Below, one piece after another: positions 9,326-48,832 of a DNA stretch of 64,000 bases; position 1 is the first letter of the stretch, and every line of letters begins with the position of its first letter. The notes under the pieces were generated by a model. It was not told the origin of the DNA. It worked only from the letters and a program-made list of their open reading frames with translations, and did not search any database. The stretch comes from a virus. Made by a program: the position numbers and the translations under genes. The DNA lies in the IMG/VR virus record IMGVR_UViG_3300030329_003230, positions 1 to 64,000 of that record; one strand, 5' to 3'.

Positions 9326-10576
9326 TCATCCCCACAAAGAATTTATCCATCTTTTCTTAATTTGTGAATCTTGCACTGCTTTATCATAAGCAGCAGACCA
9401 AGGTTGACCATCTGTTTTTCTCCCACCACCTTCTGAAGACAATACGAATGGTTTTCCATTAGCACCAAGATGGGGAGGTACTACGAATTGAGGTCTAATC
9501 CACAGATTGATTAGCCTATTAAGTGCGGGTTTTCTGATATTAATTTTAAAAGTTTTAATGTCTTCAGAACCAACTACATCTTTTAGTTCAGGAGCAATAT
9601 CTCTCAAATATTTAGAAGAGGTTCTGTTACTCTTAAATTGATGATTTTTAATTCGGTCTAGTAGAGCACCATAATTTACTATGTGACCTCCACCACGATA
9701 AATTGATTTATCTTTCATAAGTTTAGTTAGAAGAGTTTTCAATGCTGTTAGTTTAGATAATGAGTTTATTTTCTGTTCAAAATTACCAACATCATCAATT
9801 ACAACACTTTCAAGATGAGCATTATCAAGTGAATTTTTGAAATTCTCAAGAATCTTCAAAAGACCTTCATCGAATAAATTACCTTTCTCACCACCTACTA
9901 CTTCAGAACCAGAATAAATCGCTTGCCACATAGGAGGCTTTGCTTCATTTTTATTACCACTATACCAAGAAGAATGAACTGCGGGACCACCTGCTTCTTC
10001 TTTTTTACCATCTACCAATTTTCTTTTCCTTATGTAATCTGGAGTCCTATAATGACCATAAACTTTCTCTTTACTAACAACTACCCATTTACCGCCTTTC
10101 TTTTCAATATCTGTAGGGTTATCAAATCTAATATTTCTTGGGTCACTATCTCCTCCAGACATAGAGTTTAATCGCCTTACGAAAACCAATAAGTTATCAT
10201 TTTCTTTCTCATCTATGATAGAATCTTCATCTTGAATTAATTTATTTATACCTTGTAAACTATTTTGCCAAACTCCATCTCTTCCTTCCTGTCCCGGCCT
10301 TTGTTTTTCTGGCTGAACATGAAATTCCAAATGCTCAAATAAATTTGAACTACCTTTACCACCTTCTTTAGAATGGCCTCTACCAGTAACACCAATATCT
10401 GATAATGAAAGACCTTCACATTTCCTCTTCCAAGCTATATACGCTTTCTGAATACTCTTAACTTCAGTTCCTAATTCTTGGTCTATAAGTACGTTGTTTA
10501 CTCTAACCAATCTCTTCTTTTTTACTCTCTTAAGAATCTTTGAAGAATGTTTTCTTAACGTTAAATTCCAACTCAT
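9326..10576 (-). CDS. Basic hypothetical protein (416 aa) with MSW tag
   Basis: Starts MSWNLTLRK; ends KRWINSLWG. Confidence 0.8.
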   Translation of the reverse strand: MSWNLTLRKHSSKILKRVKKKRLVRVNNVLIDQELGTEVKSIQKAYIAWKRKCEGLSLSDIGVTGRGHSKEGGKGSSNLFEHLEFHVQPEKQRPGQEGRDGVWQNSLQGINKLIQDEDSIIDEKENDNLLVFVRRLNSMSGGDSDPRNIRFDNPTDIEKKGGKWVVVSKEKVYGHYRTPDYIRKRKLVDGKKEEAGGPAVHSSWYSGNKNEAKPPMWQAIYSGSEVVGGEKGNLFDEGLLKILENFKNSLDNAHLESVVIDDVGNFEQKINSLSKLTALKTLLTKLMKDKSIYRGGGHIVNYGALLDRIKNHQFKSNRTSSKYLRDIAPELKDVVGSEDIKTFKINIRKPALNRLINLWIRPQFVVPPHLGANGKPFVLSSEGGGRKTDGQPWSAAYDKAVQDSQIKKRWINSLWG

Positions 10577-11028
10577 TCGTCCTCATCCTCTTTCTTCTTT
10601 TTCTTCCTACTAAAAATTGGTCTTGTTGCTATTCCGGCAGTACTCGTCGTAACTGGTCCTCCTTCCTTTAACATATTAAACCAACGATTTTCATTCCTAA
10701 CCAATTTAGCCAATATGGACAAATCCTTTTCTTTAGCAATCTGCAACTCAGCTTCTTGTTGACTCATAGAATCCATCTTCCCCTTTAATTCCCCAATTAA
10801 TTGCGGATACTGTTTAACAAAATCAGTCTCAACAACTGCTTTCTTGAAATATTCTATTTGCCTAAGACGCTTTTCCGCATCTTTCTTATTATCGTATTCT
10901 CCCATATTTCTACCTCCTTTAGACTCTACTCGATATTTATCACCAATTCTTCTAATCAGCTTTCCACCACCTTCTTTCAGTAGTAGCACCAACATGTCTC
11001 TTCTTCGGACTTCCGGTATAAATGTCAA
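10573..11028 (-). CDS. Hypothetical protein with a phage head-associated-type module; start uncertain
   Basis: IRRIGDKYRVES...GEYDNKKDAEKRLRQIEYFK resembles small modules in phage head genes; internal RWFNMLKEGGPV. Confidence 0.6.
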   Translation of the reverse strand: MTFIPEVRRRDMLVLLLKEGGGKLIRRIGDKYRVESKGGRNMGEYDNKKDAEKRLRQIEYFKKAVVETDFVKQYPQLIGELKGKMDSMSQQEAELQIAKEKDLSILAKLVRNENRWFNMLKEGGPVTTSTAGIATRPIFSRKKKKKEDEDE

Positions 11029-13573: not shown

Positions 13574-14098
13574 ATGGCAGATTATACAATGGACGATGAA
13601 AAATGGAATAACAGGGTTTCCCTCATAGAAAGCCACATGGAGCACTATGATGTTGGAGACATGGAACCTGTTCTAAAATGGAACTTGTCAAAGGGACAAG
13701 AAGATGTAGAAAACAGAAAGAGATACTGGGCAAACATTACCAATTTGTTTGCAACAGTAGAGAACTCACCTATCGTTATAGGAAAGAGGTCGAACCTCCC
13801 CCAAGGAGTACAGAACTCACTGACTACGATTTGTGCAGTATATGCAGAAGGACATGCTGCGCTTTTTGCGAGTCACCCGCTTTATGGTGAAACGCTAAGA
13901 GCACGTGGCCGTGCAGGATACACACCTTACGAGTCTGGTGAGGCATATGGAAAAGCAATGGCAAAGAATCTACGTTCACGACTAACCACAATGTACAACA
14001 ATTACGTGAACAAGGCAGAAGAAGAAGTTCAGTGGGACGGAACAGTTGATGAAGACGGTTCCCCAACTGGAATTATTTATCCGGAGGTTGAGGAGTAA
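13574..14098 (+). CDS. Hypothetical protein (174 aa) in its own transcription unit
   Basis: Element at 13471, TTATAAAA at 13501, GGAG RBS, downstream TTCG hairpin. Confidence 0.8.
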   Translation: MADYTMDDEKWNNRVSLIESHMEHYDVGDMEPVLKWNLSKGQEDVENRKRYWANITNLFATVENSPIVIGKRSNLPQGVQNSLTTICAVYAEGHAALFASHPLYGETLRARGRAGYTPYESGEAYGKAMAKNLRSRLTTMYNNYVNKAEEEVQWDGTVDEDGSPTGIIYPEVEE

Positions 14099-17232: not shown

Positions 17233-17505
17233 TTGGAAGAAATACAAAAGAAAATAAAAGAAACAGGTAAAGAAATCACAGACTTCTTGTTAAAGAAAAA
17301 TAAACAATACGGTAATTCCGTTTTTGAGCCAATGGGAATCTTTTCCAAAGGAACTCCACAAGAGGGATTGCGAGTTAGAATTGATGATAAGTTAAATCGA
17401 CTTATGCAAGGTAATGACTCAATAGAAACAGATGAAGATATCGTAAAAGATTTGATTGGATATCTCACATTATTACTAATAATGATGAGGGTAGAAAATG
17501 ATTAG
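17233..17505 (+). CDS. DUF1599 / nucleotide-modification-associated domain 1 (Nmad1) protein
   Basis: KKNKQYGNS...RIDDKLNR...DLIGY. Confidence 0.75.
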   Translation: MEEIQKKIKETGKEITDFLLKKNKQYGNSVFEPMGIFSKGTPQEGLRVRIDDKLNRLMQGNDSIETDEDIVKDLIGYLTLLLIMMRVEND

Positions 17506-17845
17506 ACAAGAATGTAGTGTATGCGATACACCTGTAGAGAAAGCAGGTGGAAAAATGATTATTCATTGGCCTGAATCTCAAATGTTCATGGGTCGTTCTA
17601 ATGTGGAAATAGCTAATCCTGAAGTTTATGGTTCAGCATCATATTGGGTTCCAGAAGAAGTAGTAACTGGAGAAATAAACGAAATGCGAAAAGAGATAAC
17701 AGATTTATGTGAAATTGTTGATTTGTTAATTGATGAAATAGGAATTAAAAGAGTTAGTGAAATTGTAAAGACCGATAATGGTCTATGTGAAAGACAAAAG
17801 AAGAATACGATAATTAATTTTGTCCTTAGCGATAATGAGGAATAA
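17498..17845 (+). CDS. Hypothetical protein
   Basis: Coupled ORF with N-terminal CSVC. Confidence 0.6.
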   Translation: MIRQECSVCDTPVEKAGGKMIIHWPESQMFMGRSNVEIANPEVYGSASYWVPEEVVTGEINEMRKEITDLCEIVDLLIDEIGIKRVSEIVKTDNGLCERQKKNTIINFVLSDNEE

Positions 17846-20809: not shown

Positions 20810-21100
20810 ATGAGTGATAAAACAAAAAATGAACTGAAGAAAGATTTGAAGAAATTAACAGAAAAAAATGAATTTCTCTTAAAAGAGAATGAAATGATAC
20901 ATCAATCTTTTAAAGATATGACCCAAACAAGTGACAATTATCGCACAGCAATTGTTCAATTACAGAACAAGTTACAAGAGGTAGCGAATATTGTCAGTCA
21001 TTACGAGAAAACCATCTTAGTGATGAGCGGGCGAATCCAAGAGAAAGACACTTTGATAAGTGAACAAAGAATGAAAATAGAAGGAGGAAAAATAGAATGA
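20810..21100 (+). CDS. Coiled-coil protein
   Basis: Heptad pattern; coupled to the Ubl gene. Confidence 0.65.
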   Translation: MSDKTKNELKKDLKKLTEKNEFLLKENEMIHQSFKDMTQTSDNYRTAIVQLQNKLQEVANIVSHYEKTILVMSGRIQEKDTLISEQRMKIEGGKIE

Positions 21101-21300
21101 AACTGAGAATTTTGAACGAAACAGGACACACTGAAATGTCAGTAGCAGTAGAGGAAATTATGGACCACATTAACGAACACGCAACACATTGGGTTTTCGT
21201 GGATGGTGAAATGATTAACCGAACAGACATCTCAGAAGTTAACTGGGATGACGTATCAGATGTAGACTTAGTTCCCGCTATTGTTGGCGGAAACTGCTAA
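21097..21300 (+). CDS. Ubiquitin-like beta-grasp protein (ThiS/MoaD/SAMP-like) ending GG-NC
   Basis: 67 aa; WVFVDGEMI...DVDLVPAIVGG matches the VxVNG...DxVxIVPxVxGG pattern; GGAGG RBS. Confidence 0.85.
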   Translation: MKLRILNETGHTEMSVAVEEIMDHINEHATHWVFVDGEMINRTDISEVNWDDVSDVDLVPAIVGGNC

Positions 21301-21313
21301 ATCTAATACGTTA

Positions 21314-21364
21314 GTGGTTTGCCAGTAATAAGGGATTTATTGGTAATTTTATTCCCTTATCCAC
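21314..21364 (+). ncRNA. Bulged-hairpin 3'-UTR element, copy 1
   Basis: GTGG/CCAC stem, one-sided bulge TTTGCCAGTA, ATAAGGGA/TCCCTTAT stem. Confidence 0.55.
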
Positions 21365-21496
21365 ACCCAATAGGTTTTCAACATTGAAAATAAATGTTGT
21401 AAATCTAAACCCTTTTTTCACTCTCTAAAAAAAGAGGGGTATCCTTCATATAGAGCAAAAAAGGTAGAGCAGTTTACCTGTTAGGAGTGATTTGAG

Positions 21497-21916
21497 ATGT
21501 ACAAGATGATAGAATTTATTGGAAAAAAATCAAGAAAACATGAGAGAATAGTTAGGTATTTGTCAGAAAATGGAGAACAATCTACTCATGATATAGTTAA
21601 ACTGTTTGAAACAGGAAAACTATGTGCTACTACTAATGAAATAGCCAATCTCCTCAAAAAGAGCGGACTATTCACAATAAGTGGACAGACTAACGTATCT
21701 AAATTTACTTCCCTTAGGAATTCATATTCAATATGTAAATGGGATTTAAATTATGAAGGACTAGTAAGAAAATATGAAGTTAAAGAGTTTGGTAACAGTA
21801 ACAAAGGTAAGTATATTTTCAATACTACCAATAAAGAATTATATCATCTTCCTACATTAAAAAGAGAAGGGCTATGGGAAAGCATAGAAAAAGAATTGGA
21901 AAAGGAAAAAAGATGA
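21497..21916 (+). CDS. Winged-helix DNA-binding protein (putative)
   Basis: IVRYLSENGEQSTHDIV...TTNEIANLLKK...WDL. Confidence 0.6.
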   Translation: MYKMIEFIGKKSRKHERIVRYLSENGEQSTHDIVKLFETGKLCATTNEIANLLKKSGLFTISGQTNVSKFTSLRNSYSICKWDLNYEGLVRKYEVKEFGNSNKGKYIFNTTNKELYHLPTLKREGLWESIEKELEKEKR

Positions 21917-22221
21917 TATTTGATAATATACAACAATTAAGAGACTGTATGATAGAAGTATTACCCGAAATAATACCTCCAAGGCAATTAGATTCGGTAA
22001 TATCATACATTGATAAAATTAAACAATTGGATTTACAATTAGAGACTAAAGAAGTGCTATGTAATTCAGAAATAAGGAAAGTGTTGATAAAGAACAAAAT
22101 TGTCCCATCATATGAAATAAAAGATTGGTTACATCAAAGGCGAGAAGAATATCTCGAATTAATGGAATATGTCAAGAGGGATAATGAATGGAAAACCAAA
22201 CACAATATCGATACAGAATAA
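21874..22221 (+). CDS. Hypothetical protein; start probably MIFDN
   Basis: ORF in coupled array. Confidence 0.6.
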   Translation: MGKHRKRIGKGKKMIFDNIQQLRDCMIEVLPEIIPPRQLDSVISYIDKIKQLDLQLETKEVLCNSEIRKVLIKNKIVPSYEIKDWLHQRREEYLELMEYVKRDNEWKTKHNIDTE

Positions 22222-22353
22222 GTATCTGTAAAGCGAATGGAAGTGTTTGGATGGAGGAGTTTGATACTCAAAATCTCCTTATTCAGCAAATAGATGAATT
22301 ATTAGAAAAACACCCGCATCTTCTTATCTCTAAACAAAGAGTGAGTGATAAAA

Positions 22354-22506
22354 ATGAGAGACAAGAATCCCGAATATGTTAAAGGGCGAAGAGGAAATAT
22401 AGCAACTAAATGCAGAATTTGTGGTGGGGCTTTAACCCATCCAGACGATATGAAACAGGAGATACATTCTCCCTGTCTCAGAAGATATAAGAGTAAATTG
22501 AGGTGA
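22354..22506 (+). CDS. 50-aa Zn-finger protein, not in track
   Basis: CRICGGALT...HSPC read by hand. Confidence 0.6.
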   Translation: MRDKNPEYVKGRRGNIATKCRICGGALTHPDDMKQEIHSPCLRRYKSKLR

Positions 22507-22510
22507 TAAC

Positions 22511-23770
22511 GTGCCAGAATTAAAAATTAAAAGAGCCGATGATTCAGGGGAATATGATTCCACACTAGTTTTATTTGGTGGAGAAACGAGTTATAGAACA
22601 GAAACTATTTCTCCAACCATGTATAGAAAGGCTAACAATCCTATGATTGAGGCCATAAAAGTGTGGTTAGCGGGTAAACTAAAGATAACCAGAAAACACA
22701 TCTATGGTGAATCTTGGAGGAGAAATAGAAGACATAGAGGATTCTATACTCCCAACAACCAAATTGTTAGTAAAGAACCTGAAGAAAATAAACCAGAAGT
22801 AAACGAGTTTTCCCACACAATATCAATTGGAGATGAAGGCTACGTTGTTCTTTTTAACAAAGTAGGAACACGTTATTTCTTAAACGGAATAATGGGTAAC
22901 AAGTCAGTATTGATTGCTGCATTAGCAAGGACAATTTACAAGTCTTGTTTCTCTGATGATTCTCTTGAATTAGATAAGTTCCTAATTAAACATATTCAGC
23001 TCCCTGAAAATGTTCATTATGCTCTTGAGAATAGAGCACCTTACTATTTTTATTTGGAAGCAGAAGATGGGTTCCATTCTAAAAGGATTGAATGTCGATT
23101 AAAAGTCAACTTGATTAGCGACACTAAAGTAGCAGTCGAGATTTCAGATGGCATTTGGGGAGAATTAACTATTAGACAAATGAATGTCTATATGAATACT
23201 TATCTTAACAAAAAGAAGCAAGGCAATTGGAGTAACCTAAGCCCTGCTGCTTTATGGGAAAAGGTAATGAAAAGACTACCAACCGAATCTGAAGAACAAT
23301 TGATGGTAGCTTTCCTTCACCAGAATAGAACTTCAAAGGTAGTTAGAGAAAGAGCAAGAGATTTGATGATTCATATTCAATCTCGATATCCAGACAGAAT
23401 CAAGATTAATTGGGGAAGTCCTGACAAGTTACTAGATGTTTCAGAAAAGCCGACTATTATGTACATTAATGGTAAAGTTGCTGATTGGAAATTAACAGAC
23501 CGAGGATTAAAATCCCAAGGACAACAAAATGTTTCAACATACGTTTGGGTGGAGAAAGAAGGGATAGAAAAGGGAACTTGGAGTGGTCCTATTTGTGTGG
23601 ATAACCTCGATAATAAATCCCCAACAGGCGACCAGTTCGTAACAAGAGCGCTGGGATTACTGAATGATGACTTGTTAATTCAAAGAGTATCAACCATCAA
23701 AGGAAGATTAAATAGCGGCCATAAAGTGGGACAAACTGACCAAAGAATTTCGCTGTTCCAAAAGGAATAG
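22511..23770 (+). CDS. Hypothetical protein (419 aa) with C-terminal GPICVDNL motif; E2-like candidate
   Basis: GAGGTGA RBS; long ORF; function is inference only. Confidence 0.75.
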   Translation: MPELKIKRADDSGEYDSTLVLFGGETSYRTETISPTMYRKANNPMIEAIKVWLAGKLKITRKHIYGESWRRNRRHRGFYTPNNQIVSKEPEENKPEVNEFSHTISIGDEGYVVLFNKVGTRYFLNGIMGNKSVLIAALARTIYKSCFSDDSLELDKFLIKHIQLPENVHYALENRAPYYFYLEAEDGFHSKRIECRLKVNLISDTKVAVEISDGIWGELTIRQMNVYMNTYLNKKKQGNWSNLSPAALWEKVMKRLPTESEEQLMVAFLHQNRTSKVVRERARDLMIHIQSRYPDRIKINWGSPDKLLDVSEKPTIMYINGKVADWKLTDRGLKSQGQQNVSTYVWVEKEGIEKGTWSGPICVDNLDNKSPTGDQFVTRALGLLNDDLLIQRVSTIKGRLNSGHKVGQTDQRISLFQKE

Positions 23771-23795
23771 AGAAAAGAAACGGTCATCCTTCGGG

Positions 23796-24659
23796 GTGGC
23801 AAAAATGAAATGCGACGAATGTAAAGGCGATATTGTAGAGATAAATGGAGAATGGTCTTGTAATATCTGTGGGTTAATCACAGGTAGTATAATGGATTCC
23901 TCCCTTTTCAAAAACCAAGAATTAGTTAAACATCGAGATGGGAACTCTACTAGATTAGGGAGTCACATTGGTAAAGAAAAGATAAAGGGAGCAGCCAGAC
24001 TCAGGAGATTGGCAGTTATGCATAGTTTATCTAAAGAGCAGAGATTAATGAAAAAAGCTGAGTTTTACATGAATATGGTTCTCAGTGAATTTCAATTGTC
24101 AGATTGTGCTAAAAAGGACATAATGATTTATGATTCCACTTTAAGAAGAAAAGGTGTGTTTACTTCTAAAATGACATTAGAAGAAAGAGCAGGTGCTTTA
24201 GGGTATATAATTTTGAAAGAATATGGAAGAGAATATACTCTACAAGAAGTATCTCAAATATTAGAACTATCACCTAAAAGGTTGAGTAAATTAGCTAAAT
24301 TGTATGCAAGGCATTTGAATAAATCATACGTGTTTTCTAACATTAACGTGCCTTCATTGTTGGAGAAATTTTGTCTGAAATTAAATAAAGATAGAGCTTT
24401 CATTAATGATTGCGTAAGTCTGTATTATTACTTAGATAAGATAGAACCTAAACAGCCTAATTCAGCACATCTATCTGGCATTGTTTATTTTGTAGAGACA
24501 ACTAATACTAAACTAACTATGAGTCAGAGTGAAATAGCAAAGGAATTCAAAATTGGTTTGACTTCATTAAAAAATAATTACAAAAGAATATTGTCAATAT
24601 TGAAGATTGATAACGCATTTAATTTAACAGTGAGTGATATAATAGAGGGAATAAGATGA
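23796..24659 (+). CDS. tfb: Transcription initiation factor TFB (TFIIB-like)
   Basis: N-terminal Zn ribbon CDEC...CNICG, RLGSHI linker, two cyclin-fold repeats ending MSQSEIAKEF. Confidence 0.85.
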   Translation: MAKMKCDECKGDIVEINGEWSCNICGLITGSIMDSSLFKNQELVKHRDGNSTRLGSHIGKEKIKGAARLRRLAVMHSLSKEQRLMKKAEFYMNMVLSEFQLSDCAKKDIMIYDSTLRRKGVFTSKMTLEERAGALGYIILKEYGREYTLQEVSQILELSPKRLSKLAKLYARHLNKSYVFSNINVPSLLEKFCLKLNKDRAFINDCVSLYYYLDKIEPKQPNSAHLSGIVYFVETTNTKLTMSQSEIAKEFKIGLTSLKNNYKRILSILKIDNAFNLTVSDIIEGIR

Positions 24660-24904
24660 GAGCAAAAACAGTGATACATGTAGAATATGAGATATTAAAA
24701 AATATATTACAATCGAAAGAAATAGGAATGGTAATTGAAAGAGTGAAAGCCAATATGGTTCCTCCTAATGACCCAGCCGCTGAGAAAAGATTCAATGCAG
24801 GAGTGACTTCTTCAGCCCAATTGATTCGCAATATAGTAGATAGAAGAACACACAGAATTCCTCAAAACCATCCCGACTTTAAGGTGAAGTCTAATGATGA
24901 CTGA
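24656..24904 (+). CDS. Hypothetical protein
   Basis: Coupled ORF. Confidence 0.6.
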   Translation: MRAKTVIHVEYEILKNILQSKEIGMVIERVKANMVPPNDPAAEKRFNAGVTSSAQLIRNIVDRRTHRIPQNHPDFKVKSNDD

Positions 24905-25250
24905 TGAATTGAAAGAAGAAATAAATTCCTTGATAGAACAATTAGATGAAGAGAAACCCCCTTCATCAATTAAAGAAGCAGATAAGGCGATTAAAACTAA
25001 TCTGCTTGTTTATCTAAGAGGATATGTTGCTGATGATTTTTGGTATAACGGCTGGAAAGATGGGCCTAAGAATAAATTTGATTCTGCAAGAGTAAAACTC
25101 ATGGAAAGATTAGTGAGTGAAATAAAAGAAACACCATTTATACCTTTAATGGTGGAAGAAAGTGAATCTAATTCTGCATTTGAATTTGATGTAAAGGAAA
25201 TAAGAGAAGACGTATTAACGTTACAAGATTATTTGGAGATGAATGAATGA
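24894..25250 (+). CDS. Acidic hypothetical protein
   Basis: Coupled ORF upstream of E1. Confidence 0.6.
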   Translation: MMTDELKEEINSLIEQLDEEKPPSSIKEADKAIKTNLLVYLRGYVADDFWYNGWKDGPKNKFDSARVKLMERLVSEIKETPFIPLMVEESESNSAFEFDVKEIREDVLTLQDYLEMNE

Positions 25251-25810
25251 AAAGAAAGATATTGATTATAGGAACTGGAGGTATAGGAAGTTTTCTTATT
25301 CCTCTTTTAGATAAGACTGAGTTATACAATATTACAGCCCATGACCCTGATATTATAGAAAAGAAGAATATCTCTTATCAGAATTTTAATACTGGTGAAA
25401 TAGATAAGAAGAAAGTCATGGTTATGAAAAACAGATATAGTTCAATAAAGAAGGCAGAACCATTTCTTGTTCTTACAGAAAAACAGATTCAGGGATATGA
25501 TTTAGTCGTTTGTTGTGCAGATAATCTTGATGTTCGTAGACTCCTTTATAGGTCATCAACTCGATGGCTGGATTTGAGAGCACAAGGAAGGAATGGGGCA
25601 TTGATTAGTTATAAGACCCCTAAAGATATGTTTGATGTTGTCCTTGCAGGACCAGATGGTAGTTTCTCTTGTCAAGGAACAGATTGGGCGGGAGATAATT
25701 CTGGATTACATTTTACTCATGTAGCAATTGCAGGTATGGCAGCGGAATGGATTCAAAGGTGGTTTATCAGCGATAGTGATGTTTGTGATTATAAGGTTGT
25801 GAATATTTGA
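25247..25810 (+). CDS. E1-like ThiF/MoeB-family adenylyltransferase
   Basis: GTGGIGS Rossmann motif, DPDIIEKKNISYQ, CCADNLDVRR, WLDLR, candidate catalytic Cys in FSCQ. Confidence 0.9.
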   Translation: MKRKILIIGTGGIGSFLIPLLDKTELYNITAHDPDIIEKKNISYQNFNTGEIDKKKVMVMKNRYSSIKKAEPFLVLTEKQIQGYDLVVCCADNLDVRRLLYRSSTRWLDLRAQGRNGALISYKTPKDMFDVVLAGPDGSFSCQGTDWAGDNSGLHFTHVAIAGMAAEWIQRWFISDSDVCDYKVVNI

Positions 25811-26037
25811 AAGAGAAAAAGGAATTTCGACGAGAAGTTGGCGACGTTGTAGATGTCTTAGAAACAGATAATGGAACGTATTTTGATTGTGAAATAGTAT
25901 CTGTTACTTGCCCTGCCTGTGGAGAATCCTTTACTGGAATTATTAGAGAAGCAGGTGGTTTTATTGCTGGGCATCAAACATATCACGAATTCACAAATGC
26001 TCAAGACGTTATGATAAATGCTATGGGTGGTGCTTGA
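25807..26037 (+). CDS. Small Zn-finger protein between E1 and JAB
   Basis: CPACGESF...GHQTYH. Confidence 0.65.
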   Translation: MKEKKEFRREVGDVVDVLETDNGTYFDCEIVSVTCPACGESFTGIIREAGGFIAGHQTYHEFTNAQDVMINAMGGA

Positions 26038-26541
26038 ATGGAAGCTTGGATGAAAGATATACAGTCTAGTTTTAACGATGGAAATGGACTTAAGAGTATA
26101 TTCCATAATGAAAGAAATACATTTCTCCATGAAATCTGGAATCAAAGTATGAATGGATTTGATATCCCAAGGGAAATCCAAGTAGTTATAGATTCTAATA
26201 ATGAATTATTTATGAGTGTAGGAAGTCCTTCTTTTGTATCATTTAATGGACAAGATGAATCCCTTTATGGTAAGAATAATGAAAAGAAGATGAAACTACC
26301 AATCAAGTGTTGGATACATACTCACCCTTTTGGTAAAGCATATTTCAGCGGTACGGACATTTCAACAATCAATACTTGGAAACCACATATGATGTCAGCC
26401 ATAGTTTTAGGGGATAATGAACACCAAGTTTGGCAGAAGGTGAAACCGGATATTGCAAAACATGTTAGATATATTACTGAGACGATTATAGAATTAGGAA
26501 CTAAAAATAAGATAGATAAAATGGTAGAGGAATTGATATGA
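26038..26541 (+). CDS. JAB/MPN+ metallo-isopeptidase
   Basis: Upstream Glu (REIQ) and WIHTHPFGKAYFSGTD, matching HxH-x7-S-x2-D. Confidence 0.9.
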   Translation: MEAWMKDIQSSFNDGNGLKSIFHNERNTFLHEIWNQSMNGFDIPREIQVVIDSNNELFMSVGSPSFVSFNGQDESLYGKNNEKKMKLPIKCWIHTHPFGKAYFSGTDISTINTWKPHMMSAIVLGDNEHQVWQKVKPDIAKHVRYITETIIELGTKNKIDKMVEELI

Positions 26542-26765
26542 AATTAGAAGCATATGGTGAAACGATAGTTTGTAGAGAAGCAAAGACGAAAACAGGTCAT
26601 TTCGTAATGACTGAGAATAATAAAGCAGAAGTCATTTCAGTTGGTGATAAAGTTGAGAATTTGAATGTAGGAGAATTCATCTTCTATGAACCAAATAAGA
26701 AAGAAATTATTGGTGAATTTTTTGTTATTCATTTTCAAAGTGTGTTATGTAAGGTGATGGAATGA
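26538..26765 (+). CDS. groES: Co-chaperonin GroES-like
   Basis: KTKTG...AEVISVG...LNVGEFIFY; next to groEL. Confidence 0.75.
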   Translation: MKLEAYGETIVCREAKTKTGHFVMTENNKAEVISVGDKVENLNVGEFIFYEPNKKEIIGEFFVIHFQSVLCKVME

Positions 26766-26838: not shown

Positions 26839-28413
26839 GTGATAATAATAGGAAATGAAGCAAGAGAAAAAATGTTACAAGGAATAAATCTTACCGCCAA
26901 TGCGGTTAAGCCTACCCTTGGGCCTATGGCAAGAACAGTTGTTTTGAAAGAACGCTCTAAACCAATTATTGTTAATGATGGAGTAACTGTAGCAAAGGCA
27001 ATTCATCATGAAGATGAATTCGTAGATATGGGAGCTAAATTATTGATTGAAGTTGCAACTCAAGCCCAAAACTTAGCGGGTGATGGTACAACTACAGCCT
27101 GTGTTCTTGCCCAAGCCTTCTGTCAAGAAGGAATGAAATTAATAGAAGAAGGTAGTAATCCTGTAAAGATTGCAGAATCTTTGAAGGAAATAGTACATGA
27201 AATATCTGATTCTCTTTTAACGAAATCTCATCTTATTGAGAACTCTGATGAAATAAAACACGTAGCAACAATTGCTGCTAATAATGATAATTATATCGGA
27301 GGACTTATCGCTGAAGCAATAGAAACAGTTGGTAAAGATGGAGTAATTACTGTTAATGAATCTAAAGATATGAACACTACAATTGAGGTAGTTCAAGGAT
27401 TAGAAATAGATAGAGGTTATAGAACCCATCACTTAGCAACAGATAAAGAAAAGAATCAAACTGTTATGGAGAACCCTTTAATTCTGGTATCTAATTTTAA
27501 CATTATACGATTTCAAGAGATAATTCCAATCCTTGAGAAAGTTTCTGCAACTAAGCGCCCACTGTTACTTATTTCAAGAGGACTTGAGCAACACGCTATC
27601 AGTAATTTGATTGTCAACGTTATGGGTGGAGTAGTACAATGCTGTGCAATTGAATCGCCAGATTATGGTTTTGTATCTGATACACTTCTAGAGGATATCT
27701 CTATTGTTGTTGGGGCTAAATTCCTTGATTATCAGACCAATATCAAAATGGAAGAAGTACAAATCGAAGACTTAGGGGAAGCAGAAAAAGTGGTAGTAGG
27801 TGAACTAAGAACTACTATCATTAATGGTTCTGGAGATGAAGAGAAAGTAACAGAAAGAGCAACTATGATTACTAATCACATCAAAGACGCTGATAATGAA
27901 TTTATGGCTGATAAAATGAGAACAAGGGTAGCTAAACTGTTAGGCGGAGTAGCAGTCCTAAATGTAGGTGCAGCCTCTGAAGTAGAGATGAGGGATAAGA
28001 TGGAAAGAATAGATGATGCCCTTAATGCTACTAGAGCAGCAATAGAAATGGGAGTTATTTCTGGAGGAGGAACAGCTCTTGCGGAACTTTCTATGGCAAT
28101 GTCAGATAAGACTGAAGAAGTAGAAAAGGCAGTATTACTGGAGTGTCTATTAACTCCCTACGAACAAATATTGACTAATGCTGGTATTGATTACACTGAA
28201 AAGAAATATCAGAAAAAGAAAGTAAAATTACCACACATTAATGCTAAAAATGGAGAACTTGGAGATATGTATTCACTGGGAATTATAGACCCAGTTAAGG
28301 TTACTATTTCTTCTCTTAATAGTGCTGCTTCAGTAGCGGCTCTAGTATTAACATCAGAAGTATTAGTTGGAGAGGAAGAAAATGAGACTATGCAATCACA
28401 GGGCATGTTTTAA
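26839..28413 (+). CDS. groEL: Group I chaperonin GroEL
   Basis: TLGP, NDGVTVAK, AGDGTTTA, VGKDGVITV, LLGGVAV, DALNATRAA, GIIDP. Confidence 0.95.
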   Translation: MIIIGNEAREKMLQGINLTANAVKPTLGPMARTVVLKERSKPIIVNDGVTVAKAIHHEDEFVDMGAKLLIEVATQAQNLAGDGTTTACVLAQAFCQEGMKLIEEGSNPVKIAESLKEIVHEISDSLLTKSHLIENSDEIKHVATIAANNDNYIGGLIAEAIETVGKDGVITVNESKDMNTTIEVVQGLEIDRGYRTHHLATDKEKNQTVMENPLILVSNFNIIRFQEIIPILEKVSATKRPLLLISRGLEQHAISNLIVNVMGGVVQCCAIESPDYGFVSDTLLEDISIVVGAKFLDYQTNIKMEEVQIEDLGEAEKVVVGELRTTIINGSGDEEKVTERATMITNHIKDADNEFMADKMRTRVAKLLGGVAVLNVGAASEVEMRDKMERIDDALNATRAAIEMGVISGGGTALAELSMAMSDKTEEVEKAVLLECLLTPYEQILTNAGIDYTEKKYQKKKVKLPHINAKNGELGDMYSLGIIDPVKVTISSLNSAASVAALVLTSEVLVGEEENETMQSQGMF

Positions 28414-29632: not shown

Positions 29633-29851
29633 ATGAATGATGATGATGAATTATTAGGTCGTATTCCTAGAGACGCAAAGAAAGAATGGAAAGTAGTTAG
29701 AGGTAAATATTGGAATACTGAATACGTTGATATTCGTCTTTATGAAAATAATAAACCTACTAAGAAAGGAGCAAGATTGAATTTAGAAGAGATAGTATAT
29801 CTTAAACAAATACTAACTAAAATAAATATATTTAACGAGGAGGAAGAATAA
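29633..29851 (+). CDS. PC4/p15-family ssDNA-binding protein
   Basis: YVDIRLY...PTKKG. Confidence 0.8.
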   Translation: MNDDDELLGRIPRDAKKEWKVVRGKYWNTEYVDIRLYENNKPTKKGARLNLEEIVYLKQILTKINIFNEEEE

Positions 29852-30244
29852 ATGGAAACTGGATTATTTTGGAAATATAGTGATGATGCTTATAATGACT
29901 GGGTAGAAGAACACATGAATTGGATGGCGAATAATGTTCCTTCCCAAGTATGTGAGGCCTTTGAAAATGAAATAGAATCTCTAATTAATGATACAGATAG
30001 ACACGCCTTTATGTTGTATCATCTTTTACACATGTCAACTCTAGAAAATGATGATATGTACAAATTTAAAGAAGATGCTTCTGACATATGGAATTTAACA
30101 ATACCACTAATGCAGGCCTTTAACACCCTAATGTTAGGATTAGCAGCATCTGCTGGTGATGAAGATACAGTAAATGCTATTGGTTTATCTAACGCATTAA
30201 TGTTGAGAATGTTCGTCCCTAAAATCGGTGATAATGATGAGTAA
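29852..30244 (+). CDS. Hypothetical protein
   Basis: GGAGG RBS. Confidence 0.6.
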   Translation: METGLFWKYSDDAYNDWVEEHMNWMANNVPSQVCEAFENEIESLINDTDRHAFMLYHLLHMSTLENDDMYKFKEDASDIWNLTIPLMQAFNTLMLGLAASAGDEDTVNAIGLSNALMLRMFVPKIGDNDE

Positions 30245-46584: not shown

Positions 46585-47276
46585 CTCTAATAATAGATAG
46601 TAGAGAATCCTCTGATTTATCTGAAGAAGTAGAAGATAAAGCCAGAAAGATGAATATTATCACCAAAAAACAATGGATAGAAGTAGGAGACTATGTTATT
46701 GGTAATGTCTGTTTTGAGGCAAAATCTACTCATGATTTCTTATCTTCTATAGTAAGTAAAAGATTGTGGACTCAATTAGATAACATGGATAGGTGTTATG
46801 AAAATAACATAGTAATAATTTATGGTAGTCTACAGCACGCACTTACTTACACCAAATATTCTGCTAAATACAATAACATGCCAAGAGAAAGAAAAATACA
46901 ACTACTAACAAACAATTTCTATGGTGGTATTAGTAGAATAATTTTAGATTCAGATATTAAACCAGTTTGGGTTAAAGACGCATATGCAGCAGCATCAATT
47001 ATTTGCAGCGTTGCTAAAATGCAACCTGTAGATAGACCACCAATTAAGCCTCATATTTTCAAGAGGCAAACCACTGATGACATCAGAATAAACATGTTAA
47101 CGAGCATAAAAAGTGTTAGTGAAAAGAAAGCAAAGACACTTTTAAAACACTACGGGTCACTTATGGAAATAGGTGATTGCGACAAAAGGGAACTATGTTC
47201 TTTAGAGGGCATAGGAGACACAACAGCAGATAGAATATTATCTGTTTTCAATTCCGAAAAGGAGGTTAAACAATGA
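46581..47276 (+). CDS. ERCC4/XPF (Hef-like) structure-specific nuclease
   Basis: IDSRE, GDY, EAKS, C-terminal tandem HhH (GIGDTTA). Confidence 0.9.
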   Translation: MTLIIDSRESSDLSEEVEDKARKMNIITKKQWIEVGDYVIGNVCFEAKSTHDFLSSIVSKRLWTQLDNMDRCYENNIVIIYGSLQHALTYTKYSAKYNNMPRERKIQLLTNNFYGGISRIILDSDIKPVWVKDAYAAASIICSVAKMQPVDRPPIKPHIFKRQTTDDIRINMLTSIKSVSEKKAKTLLKHYGSLMEIGDCDKRELCSLEGIGDTTADRILSVFNSEKEVKQ

Positions 47277-48832
47277 ATTATGATGAAGAATATGGCTACA
47301 ATGAAGAAGTATTAGATGAAGAACAAGAGTTAGTTAGGGAAATTGATTTACCAGCTATTGTAAGAAACTGGGAAAAGGTAGCTACTTCTTATTCTAGAAA
47401 TAATAACATACCCGCAATAATAGGTTTCTATTCTTTATTGGGTGATATGGTAAAGAATATGGTAGAGATACCTTTTAAGGATACAACAATAGATACAAGA
47501 ATACATTTTTGTTGGATTCAAACAGCAAGGACTGGTAAAACCACTCTACTATCTTATGTTCTTAGCCCTGTAGCTAAAGAAATATATGAAAAATTAGCAG
47601 ATGATAAATATGTTAATTCTAAAGTAGTTAATTTTGCAGACTATACTACCGCCGCATTAATTGGTAGTCATACTGAAAATAAGAAATTCAACGAAGATGC
47701 TGAGGAATTATGCCAACAGGAATTGGACGCAATAGATAATAATGAAATGTTAGATGTTGATGAAAGAACAAATAGAATTAATGCTGCCATTAAGAAAAGA
47801 GATAGAACCAAAGATAATTGGCATATACATTTAGGCCCCATTCACGGAGAAGGGATATGGATAGCTGATGAATTTGAAGGTAGTGGTATTTTCAAAGAGA
47901 AAAGTCACAAAGAGAATATGAATATTGTATTTCAAACTTTAATGAATAATTTCCATAGTGGTGGAAATGTATATGAAAAAATATTGACTGGAAAACCAAC
48001 TATTACTCTTGATTCTAGATATACTATTATTGCTAGTACTTTTACTCCCGAACATTTATTAAAAACAGTAGCACAAAAAGGAACTCTTCAAAGATTTTTA
48101 CCTTTTGTATGGGATGTTCCTGACGATATCATTACTACAATGAGAAAGAAAGTTATCAGTGGGTTTGGAATAATACCTGAAAGAAGAGGACCGCCTCTAC
48201 AATTAACTGAAGGTTTATTGAATATATACAAATTAATGAAAGAGAGGTTTATTTCTGTAGACAAAGATATGTTCCGAACTATAACCTACGATGAAACAGT
48301 TGGAGATAGTTTAGATTTAGAACATAGTAATTTACTTAGATATATTAAAGATGTTAATCCTAAAATAAGAAGTATAATTAGATTATTTGAGCAAAATCTA
48401 GTAGAATATATTGCTAAATTAGCTGTATTGAATTGTATAGCTATGGCAAGGGGAATCAGTAATGAAAATCAAAGATTTATTGTTATGCCACAAAATGTAA
48501 GACAAGGAGCATATATTGTAAGGAAATGCTACATGGCTTTAGTCGATTGGTTAGAGAATGCTATTAAAATCGATAGACGTAACTTAATTACAAAAAGTAA
48601 CTGGCCAGAATTTGAAAAGGCATATGGCATAGCTAAGAAAAATGCGAAATCTGCGGAAACTTTAGATGGAGGTTATGTCTCGAAAACATTAGTACTGTTT
48701 GAAGCAGGTAAAATAATCCAAAGAGCCCCCGCACAAGTGTATAGGAATTTTGATAAAGTAAGTGAAATGTTTGAGAGTAAAAAGACAGGAAGAATAGTGT
48801 ATATTAGGCCGAAAATGGAGGAAGAGAAATGA
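47273..48832 (+). CDS. P-loop ATPase, probable replicative (MCM-like) helicase
   Basis: TARTGKTT, WIADEFE, GTLQRF arginine-finger-like motif. Confidence 0.6.
   Translation: MNYDEEYGYNEEVLDEEQELVREIDLPAIVRNWEKVATSYSRNNNIPAIIGFYSLLGDMVKNMVEIPFKDTTIDTRIHFCWIQTARTGKTTLLSYVLSPVAKEIYEKLADDKYVNSKVVNFADYTTAALIGSHTENKKFNEDAEELCQQELDAIDNNEMLDVDERTNRINAAIKKRDRTKDNWHIHLGPIHGEGIWIADEFEGSGIFKEKSHKENMNIVFQTLMNNFHSGGNVYEKILTGKPTITLDSRYTIIASTFTPEHLLKTVAQKGTLQRFLPFVWDVPDDIITTMRKKVISGFGIIPERRGPPLQLTEGLLNIYKLMKERFISVDKDMFRTITYDETVGDSLDLEHSNLLRYIKDVNPKIRSIIRLFEQNLVEYIAKLAVLNCIAMARGISNENQRFIVMPQNVRQGAYIVRKCYMALVDWLENAIKIDRRNLITKSNWPEFEKAYGIAKKNAKSAETLDGGYVSKTLVLFEAGKIIQRAPAQVYRNFDKVSEMFESKKTGRIVYIRPKMEEEK

Follow-up and report, generated by a model that had tools for sequence, protein, structure and literature searches.

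The gene block described here raises the question whether a virus of marine archaea encodes a ubiquitin-like modifier system of its own, and what such a system would do. The DNA analysed (the window) is a stretch of 64,000 nucleotides, which is part of the complete 87.4-kb genome of a magrovirus-like virus, a tailed virus of Marine Group II archaea (Poseidoniales). This virus group is common and abundant in the ocean. A sequence-only reading of the window had proposed that the virus runs its own tagging system, with a ubiquitin-like protein (Ubl), an E1-like enzyme and a JAB protease. We found that the three genes are one conserved, functionally linked set in a virus of archaea, and to this extent the proposal stands; conjugation as the output is what we infer. 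In our estimate, with a probability of about 0.6, the virus encodes its own modifier system for conjugation to proteins, consisting of the Ubl, a JAB that would trim it and a stripped-down E1. A literature search found no paper on such a kit in magroviruses. In this abundant group of marine viruses, the three genes together make up a set of core genes. What is new here, as judged by profile comparisons, is that the same Ubl family is also present in the host lineage, Poseidoniales.

Organization and conservation of the locus

The three open reading frames (ORFs) lie exactly where they had been placed (Table 1), and the 67-aa Ubl ends in VPAIVGGNC. The Ubl start overlaps the stop of the preceding ORF (20810-21100) by 4 nt. 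The E1 ORF overlaps the stop of the ORF upstream with its start and the following ORF with its stop, and the JAB gene starts at the base right after the stop of the 76-aa ORF. Direct coupling to groES-groEL had also been claimed. The JAB stop does overlap the 75-aa ORF and the GroEL-type chaperonin is solid (found in 68/80 loci), but the likeness of the 75-aa ORF to GroES is weak, with no Pfam or NCBIfam match and a tblastn match in only 8/80 loci.

Table 1. Features of the putative modifier locus and its neighbours in the window
Feature	Position	Strand	Basis
pro-Ubl, 67 aa	21097..21300	+	ORF; C-terminus VPAIVGG-NC
Zinc-ribbon-like protein, 53 aa	22345..22506	+	directly upstream of 419-aa gene; co-conserved
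Conserved 419-aa protein (p419)	22511..23770	+	between Ubl and E1
287-aa protein, N-terminal zinc ribbon	23796..24659	+	between p419 and E1
Minimal E1-like adenylating enzyme, 187 aa	25247..25810	+	Pfam ThiF 8.3e-15
Accessory zinc-binding protein, 76 aa, ends GG-A	25807..26037	+	between E1 and JAB
JAB/JAMM metalloprotease, 167 aa	26038..26541	+	JAMM residues, Prok-JAB family matches
GroES-like ORF (weak), 75 aa	26538..26765	+	phrog_3188 co-chaperonin GroES, E 0.001
GroEL-type chaperonin, 524 aa	26839..28413	+	Cpn60_TCP1 4.8e-48; phrog_5725 3.7e-127

The order and strand of Ubl, E1 and JAB are constant across related viral loci. In 79 of 80 loci, JAB lies downstream of E1 and on its strand; the remaining locus has only 71 nt of sequence downstream. 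Co-occurrence of the Ubl, which had been put forward as a check, was counted in the 42 of the 80 loci with at least 7900 nt of upstream DNA, and a homolog was present in all 42. Because magrovirus genomes are broadly syntenic, this co-occurrence alone is weak evidence. The Ubl gene is 4.1 kb upstream of E1 in the window (2.4 to 7.9 kb across loci), with unrelated genes between them. This distance would suit an E1-JAB pair acting on the C-terminus of some other viral protein, as CBASS Cap2/Cap3 act on the cyclase, with the Ubl-like gene a separate member of the same early block. The E1 also matches the E1 part of the PADLOC E1-E2 (Cap2-type) models at 3e-8, and crAss-like phages have adjoining JAMM-motif and E1-like proteins; there, no Ubl was detected by our Ubl profiles in the 6 genes tested. 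However, the presence of the Ubl in every informative locus speaks against this view, as do its C-terminus and the natural fusions described below, and we regard it as improbable.

Between Ubl and E1, p419 is present in 66/80 loci, in every case at this position. It has one invariant cysteine, C362, in the motif GPIC(I/V)DN ... GDQ..R..LLND, and no match was found in Pfam, the PDB or the Atlas. No UQ_con or Prok-E2_B domain is present in the viral genome and no E2 is recognisable by sequence; p419 is a candidate for an E2-like carrier or acceptor. The 53-aa gene has a tblastn match in 52/80 loci, always just upstream of a p419 homolog, and its product shows a weak LysW-like zinc-ribbon match only (E 0.034). 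The 287-aa gene (tblastn match in 39/80 loci), earlier read as TFB-like, gives only weak helix-turn-helix matches (Sigma70_r4 / sigma-70, phrog_20431). The 76-aa gene occurs in only 15/80 loci, at times elsewhere in the locus, and its product has the conserved motif CxxC..GGF.xGH..FH. As a rival Ubl this protein was rejected, since its GG end is not conserved and most homologs end in ELEA or ELEV.

The proposed modifier and its putative protease

In 40 distinct viral homologs, the C-terminal part of the Ubl has an invariant ...A(I/V)VGG, behind which comes a tail of 0-4 variable residues (none in 5 homologs, one in 5, two in 29 and four in 1). Judging from this alignment, an invariant GG with a freely varying tail is beyond chance, and it is the look of an E1/JAB substrate, contrary to the view that the pair has another target. 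The other invariant residues are I5, N7, G10, H11, T12, I25, H28, T30, W32, V56, L58, A61 and V63, which precede G64 and G65. A broad family profile is colinear with ubiquitin as far as the terminal GG; its match to single ubiquitin is weak (E 0.02-0.13), and the best 60 of its 156 PDB matches are ubiquitin chains only, aligned to the C-terminal GG. These matches are a hint of a putative beta-grasp fold. The Pfam ThiS model does not match the window Ubl and is touched at E<=1 by 2/53 family members.

Conceivably, the 67-aa protein acts without covalent attachment, binding or inhibiting a target such as a host AAA+ protease, in the way that T4 PinA inhibits Lon. Pfam PinA (PF10465) is touched by 21/41 viral Ubl homologs at E<=10 (best 9.5e-5) and phrog_2167 ('inhibitor of host Lon protease') by 11/41, and the viral-clade Ubl profile gives T4 PinA 14.6 bits. 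However, the five PinA scores among the matches listed are 12.4-16.4 bits, all under the 27-bit cut-off, the broad family profile gives T4 PinA only 0.5 bits, and PinA has neither the His residues nor the GG end of the Ubl. Inhibition leaves the invariant GG, the tails and the arrays and fusions of the host lineage unexplained, and we consider it very improbable.

The JAMM motif, claimed to be complete, is indeed so: E46, H94-T-H96-x7-S104-x2-D107 are all invariant in 40 homologs. The window JAB reaches 22.5 bits with Pfam Prok-JAB, under the 25-bit cut-off, but 33/40 of its homologs match this model at E<=0.01, and the JAB family profile matches the deubiquitinase AMSH-LP (1.5e-4). The two-residue cap had been taken to predict that JAB is required. 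The variable cap after the invariant GG is real, but five of the 40 Ubls end at GG and JAB is retained. Because the genomes with these tail-less Ubls still carry JAB, the cap cannot be its only reason to exist. This retention fits a role beyond trimming, possibly deconjugation.

The E1-like enzyme and its relatives in the host lineage

The E1 is a true member of the ThiF superfamily (55 bits against a Pfam cut-off of 28.1), with 718 homologs and 241 relatives in IMG/VR. Its motifs (GTGGIGS, CCADN..R, GSFSCQG) and the lack of CxxC pairs are as had been described, but the 'lone cysteine' was a loose term, because the window E1 has four (C89, C90, C142, C180). Two of these, C90 and C142, do not vary among 40 homologs, and GxGGIG, D33/D35, N41, Q45, K56, D92 and R97 are kept. 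In the alignment with UBA5, C142, the one cysteine conserved in viral and host E1s alike, falls on a zinc ligand (the second Cys of the first knuckle) and not on the catalytic crossover-loop Cys; the viral E1 has no cysteine at that canonical position. In the N-x-x-R-Q motif, viral E1s have Tyr and host E1s have His in place of Arg. Of the features of ThiF/MoeB, the viral enzyme lacks the N-terminal helices and both CxxC zinc pairs, and most of the C-terminal domain is absent. Profile matches in the PDB include ThiF-type 9egc, UBA5, MccB, Cap2 (6e-8), UBA3, Uba4, MoeB and ThiF. None of the NCBIfam equivalog cut-offs was reached (ThiF, the best match, 43.6 against 275; MoeB 25.8 against 376; UbaA 23.3 bits against 450). 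In the tree, the compact E1s of viruses and of Poseidoniales share one clade, separate from the MoeB/rhodanese-type enzymes (100/100). Precomputed Pfam lists show the rhodanese domain in the MoeB-type outgroup and not in the compact E1s of either origin.

Poseidoniales have relatives of the Ubl as polyubiquitin-like tandem arrays and as Ubl-E1 fusions. In fusion P0163 a Ubl is joined to E1 by a linker, and P0134 has two Ubl copies and E1; the named members of the fusion cluster are Candidatus Poseidoniales archaeon. Over 168 columns, the E1 half of these fusions agrees with the profile of the viral E1 (probability 99.5, E 1.6e-22), and BLASTP gives a match at 2e-18. These are fusions of exactly the two families in question, so Ubl and E1 are linked independently of synteny, contrary to the view that E1 and JAB serve a different target. 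The arrays have 2-3 tandem copies, mostly ending in (V/L)GG (one pair ends in AG); the tri-Ubl cluster comprises 353 members, and of the 15 listed, those with a name belong to Poseidoniaceae. Such arrays fit a modifier that is consumed stoichiometrically and needs an endoprotease. Since the host archaea also possess the kit, the virus probably tags proteins during infection; and since the host lineage has a diverged version of this kit, the viral genes probably supplement, mimic or subvert a pathway of the host.

Conjugation, sulfur transfer and known systems

From the sequences, we suggest that conjugation to proteins is the likeliest output. The Ubl would be synthesised with a short disposable tail (NC here), JAB would trim it to expose Gly-Gly, and the 187-aa E1 would adenylate the Gly-Gly carboxylate with ATP. 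The activated Ubl would then be transferred to lysines of viral or host proteins, either directly through a presumed thioester at C142 or via the 419-aa cysteine protein, and JAB would also take the tag off again. Proteasome delivery, modification of virion proteins and counter-defence, which had been proposed as purposes, would be conceivable uses of such a tag. The invariant GG, the co-occurrence, the fusions and arrays, the intact active sites and the lack of viral sulfur partners together make such a cycle the probable one.

A less likely possibility is that the Ubl is a sulfur carrier. JAB would trim it, E1 would adenylate it and a host persulfide donor would convert it to a thiocarboxylate, from which sulfur would pass into a tRNA, a cofactor or a small molecule while infection proceeds. 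Protein conjugates would then be beside the point or a by-product, as they are with SAMP and Urm1. The E1 is nearer to the short ThiF/MoeB type than to multi-domain E1s; it has neither a canonical catalytic Cys nor a partner E2, and host enzymes could provide the sulfur-transfer partners. The Ubl tail '..DG..V.R.....W..V..V.L.P.IVGG' resembles what we take to be the ThiS pattern. One Atlas cluster close to the query, made up of 170-aa Thermoplasmatota proteins, has ThiS on 24% of its members (score 0.83), which is a lead only. JAMM-processed sulfur carriers are known as well (QbsE/QbsD, CysO/Mec). The C-terminus of QbsE is reportedly GG-CF, which the JAMM protease QbsD trims before the thiocarboxylate is made, so the two-residue cap is no argument against a sulfur carrier. 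ThiF/JAMM biosynthesis is described in the accessible text of PMC5925218.

The window had been said to contain no sulfur-pathway genes, and searches of the whole virus agree with this. When the 114 ORFs of the 87.4-kb genome were all scanned with Pfam at E<=1e-4, 32 families matched; thiamine, molybdopterin and tRNA-thiolation families (including MoaE and ThiG) were absent from the best 25 of these 32, the remaining 7 being weaker than 1.4e-5. Six-frame profile searches of the genome gave no match to ThiS, PP-loop ATPase or rhodanese. This absence argues against sulfur transfer, as do the compact E1s free of a rhodanese domain and the retention of JAB where no trimming is needed. The host homologs are tandem arrays, and we know of no such poly-Ubl-type arrangement for catalytic sulfur carriers.

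Among known systems, archaeal SAMPylation (SAMP1-3, UbaA and HvJAMM1 of Haloferax volcanii) is similar in its small GG-ended modifier (the beta-grasp fold being putative here), single-domain ThiF-type E1, JAMM protease, lack of a recognisable E2, archaeal setting and possible dual conjugation and sulfur-carrier role (available text of PMC4443979 and PMC4895103). In comparison, the viral system is virus-encoded, its Ubl is unseen by Pfam ThiS and its host relatives are arrays and fusions; its E1 has about 80 residues fewer than the UbaA model with its 270 positions, and lacks the CxxC zinc pairs and the canonical crossover-loop Cys. Bub (6E/DUF6527), in the available text of PMC11601596, is a true conjugation pathway despite its odd chemistry: like the viral enzyme, its E1 lacks the crossover-loop catalytic cysteine, but it has a Tyr in that loop, its E2 uses Ser (oxyesters), its Ubl fusion is cut by JAB/JAMM before use, and its antiphage operon includes a JAB-E1 fusion and the serine protease BubE. 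In contrast, JAB and E1 are separate genes here, no E2 is recognisable, C142 is conserved and the location is a virus.

Bil (BilABCD) and Type II CBASS Cap2/Cap3 share the logic of a Ubl or target C-terminus, E1 and JAB in prokaryote-virus conflict. According to the same text (PMC11601596), the E1 BilD has several domains (IAD-AAD-CYS), and both Bil and Cap2 include an E2. The viral E1 matches span the Rossmann part only (about residues 2-105), and Bil and CBASS defend cells against phage, whereas the present kit sits in the virus. QbsE/QbsD/QbsC, CysO/Mec/MoeZ and ThiS-ThiF / MoaD-MoeB combine a short adenylating enzyme with JAMM-removed C-terminal residues and no E2. These sulfur carriers are like the viral system in the ThiF/MoeB-type enzyme, the GG-ended small protein with extra residues, JAMM and the lack of E2, but the viral E1 is far under every equivalog cut-off and has no zinc motifs, and its host relatives include poly-Ubl arrays. 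Finally, Asgard-archaeal viruses (Nidhogg) also have ThiF/E1-like genes, read as hijacking the host ubiquitin system (10.1101/2021.07.29.454249). The available text of this preprint describes E1-like genes in Asgard-archaeal viruses with no viral Ubl or JAB, and reliance on host Ubl and E2, whereas the magrovirus-like virus carries Ubl, E1 and JAB itself.

Conserved setting of the viral genes

The window covers the initial 64 kb of a record of 87.4 kb that was rated complete by CheckV. Its virion genes comprise the large terminase, portal, prohead protease, SU10-type capsid protein and tail tube, its replication genes a family-B DNA polymerase, ATP-dependent ligases and RFC-like clamp-loader parts, and the genome also has a GroEL-type chaperonin and a tRNA-Leu. 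According to the accessible text of the magrovirus description (PMC5434244), magroviruses are assigned to Marine Group II archaea, a GroEL or thermosome subunit is found in about half of the described genomes, and tRNA-Leu is carried by magrovirus group B. The gene content matches this published description and, together with homologs in the host lineage, suggests that the window virus is magrovirus-like.

The sequence-only reading had proposed a 67-aa ubiquitin-like protein (Ubl) with the C-terminus VPAIVGG-NC, a compact E1 and a JAB peptidase with a complete JAMM motif. We found all three ORFs at exactly the positions it gave, and the C-terminus of the Ubl as described. The genes also keep company across related viruses, as that reading implied. 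A large protein collection holds 718 homologs of the E1, of about 185 aa each, and IMG/VR holds 241 relatives, from which 80 loci were drawn for synteny counts by tblastn. JAB had a match in 79 of these 80 E1 loci, downstream of E1 on the same strand, and the sole exception has 71 nt of downstream DNA. The Ubl gene lies 2.4-7.9 kb upstream of E1; it was matched in 54 of the 80 loci, and in 42 of the 42 informative loci with at least 7900 nt of upstream DNA. The gene of the 419-aa protein (66/80), where found, was always between Ubl and E1, and the 53-aa zinc-ribbon ORF (52/80) was just upstream of it; at L023, L026 and L062, three of these loci, Ubl directly precedes the 53-aa and 419-aa genes.

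The proposed coupling of JAB to groES-groEL stood in part. GroEL is solid, with a match in 68 of the 80 loci, and the 75-aa GroES-like ORF is translationally coupled to JAB and lies just 5' of GroEL, but the GroES identity of this ORF is weak, with a PHROG match at E 0.001 only and no match in Pfam or NCBIfam. The absence of GroES from magroviruses was expected in the accessible text of the 2017 paper (PMC5434244).

As a separate observation, 8 of the 114 ORFs have at least three acidic residues among their last four, where 1.1 would be expected from composition. JAB homologs of related viruses end in ..GEEE or ..DEEE in 32 of 40 cases, and the window JAB has no such end. These acidic ends may be a common C-terminal tag.

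Positions of the genes discussed, in the numbering of the viral record
Feature	Positions	Strand	Length	Remark
Ubl	21097-21300	+	67 aa	
Zinc-ribbon ORF	22345-22506		53 aa	
419-aa protein	22511-23770	+	419 aa	single invariant Cys, C362
ORF chain	24656-26765			82-aa, 118-aa, E1, 76-aa, JAB and 75-aa GroES-like ORFs, with 4-nt overlaps or abutting
E1	25247-25810	+	187 aa	
76-aa ORF	25807-26037		76 aa	ends GG-A
JAB	26038-26541	+	167 aa	
GroES-like ORF	26538-26765		75 aa	
GroEL	26839-28413			
Acidic-ended ORF	10573-11028			window
Acidic-ended ORF	13574-14098			window
Acidic-ended ORF	17498-17845			window
Acidic-ended ORF	29633-29851			window
Acidic-ended ORF	29852-30244			window
Acidic-ended ORF	47273-48832			window
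Acidic-ended ORF	82236-82577			rest of genome
Acidic-ended ORF	86108-87325			rest of genome

Signatures of the Ubl, JAB and E1

Among 40 distinct viral Ubl sequences, 15 positions are invariant, including G64-G65. The GG is followed by no residue in 5 sequences, by one in 5, by two in 29 and by four in 1, and the sequence of these residues varies freely. Such a fixed GG with a dispensable tail classically marks a Ubl precursor. The two-residue cap had been taken to mean that JAB is required. The cap is real, but the five tail-less Ubls are still accompanied by JAB, and therefore trimming cannot be the only job of this enzyme.

At E<=10, neither the window Ubl nor any of its 40 viral homologs matched Pfam ThiS (PF02597), and a six-frame search of the whole viral genome for this family was negative too. 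In the wider Ubl family, 2 of 53 members match Pfam ThiS and 2 of 53 touch the lambda tail-assembly Ubl family, both at E<=1. A broad profile built from these 53 proteins has 156 PDB matches at E<=10, and the 60 matches listed are all ubiquitin chains. Its alignment with ubiquitin is colinear, running across 'LIFAGKQL' up to the terminal GG, and weak for a single ubiquitin (E 0.02-0.13); polyubiquitin reaches very low E-values only as the sum over nine identical weak domains. A beta-grasp fold is thus likely for the 67-aa protein.

The viral Ubl clade has conserved histidines, with H11 and H28 invariant and H31 in at least 90% of the sequences. They lie in the motifs N-E-T-G-H-T and H-P-T-H-W; the second is clade-specific, and the G-H of the first is also present in most of the wider-family members shown. 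These residues may form a metal- or partner-binding site, which would be unusual for a Ubl. Kinship of the Ubl with T4 PinA, the Lon inhibitor, was considered and dismissed as weak and clade-specific (14.6 bits with the viral profile, 0.5 bits with the broad family profile). The 76-aa ORF was likewise rejected as a real Ubl: it had a match in only 15 of 80 loci, sometimes far from E1, conservation does not extend to the GG end, and the motif that is conserved, CxxC..GGF.xGH..FH, is zinc-ribbon-like.

The JAMM motif of JAB, E ... HxHx7Sx2D, is complete, and E46, H94, H96, S104 and D107 are invariant among 40 homologs. The window JAB scores 22.5 bits against Pfam Prok-JAB, below the gathering cut-off of 25 bits, and 33 of the 40 homologs match this family at E<=0.01 (best 2.2e-5). 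In the PDB, the JAB profile finds the deubiquitinases AMSH-LP (1.5e-4), STAMBP and Sst2, plus an Rpn11-like protein.

The compact E1 belongs to the ThiF superfamily: residues 3-123 match Pfam ThiF (PF00899) at 55.0 bits (cut-off 28.1; E 8.3e-15). As described in the sequence-only reading, GxGGIG and DN..R are present and there is no CxxC pair. G9-x-G11-G12-I-G14-S and D92-N93...R97 are invariant among 40 E1 homologs; the E1s of Poseidoniales keep the D and R of DN..R, and N93 is often R in them. GxGxxG is the nucleotide loop of the Rossmann fold, and in ..DN..R the acidic residue binds Mg-ATP. The Arg of (S)N(L)xRQ, a phosphate-binding motif residue, is missing, and the motif reads KN-I-S-Y44-Q in the viruses and SNLG-H-Q in the host forms. 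NCBIfam and PADLOC matches cover the first ~105 residues only and stay below every NCBIfam equivalog cut-off (ThiF, 43.6 vs 275.25; MoeB, 25.8 vs 376.55; UbaA, 23.3 vs 450). The PDB matches of the E1 profile are ThiF-type, UBA5, MccB, Cap2, UBA3, Uba4, MoeB and ThiF chains; the code of the best one, 9EGC, was found in no relevant paper.

The E1 begins at the Rossmann strand and stops 45 residues past C142. Of the two structural-zinc CxxC pairs of ThiF, MoeB and UBA5-type E1s it has neither, with S139-F-S-C142 in the place of the C-F-A-C knuckle of UBA5 and no second CxxC pair. Thioester-forming E1s such as UbaA, UBA5 and Uba1 carry their catalytic cysteine in the crossover loop; the loop here (QGTDWAGDNSGLHF) contains no Cys. 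In the UBA5 alignment C142 falls in the zinc knuckle, just before the crossover loop, and it is present in 22 of 23 aligned viral, host and fused E1 sequences. Because C142 is a lone surviving zinc ligand without a structural reason to persist, we infer that it is a candidate nucleophile. Conjugation driven by an E1 without a catalytic cysteine is described for the Bub pathway in the accessible text of PMC11601596. At 187 aa, the enzyme would approximate a minimal adenylating core and could serve as a simple model of E1 chemistry that dispenses with zinc motifs and with the customary catalytic loop.

Host-lineage relatives and the output of the system

Run with HMMER against 1.84 billion representatives, the viral Ubl profile gave 152 proteins at E<=0.001. 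Three tandem Ubl copies were found in P0122, P0125 and P0126 and two in several others of these proteins, and most copies within the arrays end in (V/L)GG. This is the polyubiquitin arrangement, which by analogy would require an endoprotease and would suit a tag that is consumed. In P0163 the Ubl is followed by a Gly/Ser linker and an E1, and in P0134 two Ubl copies precede an E1. Aligned to the viral E1 profile, the E1 part of P0163 gives a probability of 99.5 and an E-value of 1.6e-22; the 168 matched columns take in WLDLR and the cysteine of S-C-Q. P0134 matches the viral E1 by BLASTP at 2e-18. These fusions tie the Ubl family to the E1 family independently of the viral synteny. In P0130, P0176, P0137, P0151, P0168, P0252, P0265 and P0245, the Ubl is N-terminal to other domains of 100-310 aa, always with the GG at the junction, an architecture that resembles that of ubiquitin-fusion proteins.

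By their source names, these proteins come from the host lineage. Members of the P0134 cluster are named 'hypothetical protein [Candidatus Poseidoniales archaeon]'. Among the 15 listed of the 353 members of the tri-Ubl cluster, those that carry a name are Poseidoniaceae, and two fusion clusters are on contigs of 1.4-2.0 Mb. Poseidoniaceae also have stand-alone compact E1s of 205-240 aa, one of them annotated only as 'ThiF family adenylyltransferase'. In the tree, the compact viral and Poseidoniales E1s are apart from MoeB/rhodanese-type enzymes (support 100/100), and the viral E1s group together (86/94; recovered in 82% of the bootstrap trees); the outgroup row P0404, on a long branch, was placed next to the viral E1s and given no weight. 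No Ubl-E1 fusion, Ubl-domain fusion or host-clade Ubl was found in IMG/VR, and the phage collection searched for Ubl gave chance-level matches only (E 5-10). Among 185,579 species genomes, the viral Ubl had 3 matches only, all in a single 'Altibacter sp.' MAG, on its contigs NZ_NZTP01000030.1, NZ_NZTP01000027.1 and NZ_NZTP01000016.1. They encode different Ubl homologs with 41-61% identity, and the contigs look like magrovirus DNA mis-binned into a bacterial MAG.

In 69 of 80 host-like contigs, the di-Ubl gene has an RFC-like AAA+ gene on its 3' side, in the same orientation and 270-460 nt away (for example L096:8001-9873). The contigs have a GC of 0.38-0.57, and the RFC-like proteins share 52-100% identity with the one of L096. 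Most of the 11 loci without this neighbour are on contigs that stop just past the Ubl gene. The two neighbours may be a conserved pair, or this may be merely inherited synteny within one order.

We estimate a probability of roughly 60% that the output of the viral Ubl, E1 and JAB is protein conjugation, either alone or alongside a sulfur function of the kind known from SAMP and Urm1. Conjugation is favoured because the host lineage has poly-Ubl arrays, JAB is retained where the Ubl needs no trimming, the whole virus is without a rhodanese, a PP-loop thiolase or a ThiS-family match, and no compact E1 carries a rhodanese domain. Rhodanese (PF00581) and PP-loop (PF01171) profiles found nothing in the whole viral genome at E<=1; these two families, MoaE and ThiG are not among the 25 listed of the 32 Pfam families matched by all 114 ORFs, and precomputed Pfam lists give no rhodanese domain for the compact E1s. 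Sulfur transfer by the same three proteins appears unlikely to us in the face of these results, even though the E1 is short and ThiF-like, no E2 is recognisable, the C-terminal pattern of the Ubl is ThiS-like, and sulfur carriers with a cap removed by a JAMM protease exist. In that case host genes could stand in for the absent viral partners.

Beyond conjugation as such, we tentatively suggest, at somewhat less than even odds, that Marine Group II archaea and magroviruses share a new full Ubl cascade, with a viral copy of all four parts retagging host or viral proteins in the course of infection. The tag would be the new Ubl family, in polyubiquitin-like arrays or as capped monomers; a minimal E1 of 187-225 aa would work without the canonical crossover-loop cysteine; the 419-aa protein would be a new cysteine carrier enzyme acting as the E2; and JAB would both mature and remove the tag. 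The 419-aa family has one invariant Cys, in GPIC(I/V)DN followed by GDQ..R..LLND, a motif that we take to resemble the active-site stretch of UBC enzymes.

Searches of Pfam, the PDB, the Atlas and genome profiles gave no support to an E2 identity of this protein. UQ_con matched none of 35 homologs at E<=1, neither of the E2 profiles PF00179 and PF14461 has a match in the viral genome, and the C-terminal profile of the family found nothing in the PDB at E<=10. Nor was kinship established with the domains behind the Ubl in P0130/P0176 and P0151/P0168, for which hhalign has the Cys motif in register at a probability of only 0.5-4%. Compared with each other, these two domain sets have a common Cys-containing motif (hhalign E 2.9e-4, probability 40%).

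Magrovirus hosts are uncultured. The parts of the system are small and soluble-looking, so that the claims are directly testable in vitro. If true, archaeal viruses would have, in a virus-encoded Ubl kit, a new way of taking over the host, and Poseidoniales would own a polyubiquitin-style modifier system so far annotated only as hypothetical proteins. With the shared cascade, if it exists, a complete E1-E2-Ubl-DUB system would for the first time be known from a prokaryotic virus.

Relation to known systems

The sequence-only reading knew of no characterised example in an archaeal tailed virus, and we found none in the papers searched. The text of the two main magrovirus papers does not mention ubiquitin, JAB, ThiF, E1-like or MoeB, though their supplementary tables may list these genes; no paper linking magrovirus with ubiquitin was found, and a search for Poseidoniales and ubiquitin-like gave only unrelated work. 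The nearest published precedent found is in Asgard-archaeal viruses, for which the accessible text describes E1-like genes alone.

In crAss-like Bacteroides phages, an E1-like domain is present in Kehishuvirus 'tikkala' (OQ198717.1, L168:2268-4657) and 33 other records. It sits inside a 383-aa 'thiamine biosynthesis protein' and covers 96-97% of the viral E1 at 25-26% identity (E ~1e-10; 25 matches listed). Directly upstream of this gene is a 411-aa 'metalloprotease' with the JAMM motif H-S-H-x7-S-G-T-D, and thus an adjacent JAB and E1 pair also occurs in bacterial viruses. Ubl profiles found no Ubl among the 6 crAss-like genes tested.

The overall logic of the system is the same as that of the prokaryotic Ubl-E1-JAB systems, namely SAMP, Bil, Bub and the sulfur-carrier sets. 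In the accessible text of PMC11601596, Bil (BilABCD) has a multi-domain IAD-AAD-CYS E1 and an E2, whereas the E1 here is a single domain of 187 aa and no E2 is detectable. In comparison with these known systems, the Ubl family is new to Pfam, the minimal E1 is outside every named equivalog, and the host lineage makes poly-Ubl and Ubl-E1 fusions. Here the three genes are also part of the core gene set of an abundant archaeal virus; magroviruses rank third in abundance in the surface ocean, after SAR11 phages and cyanophages, in the accessible text of PMC5434244.
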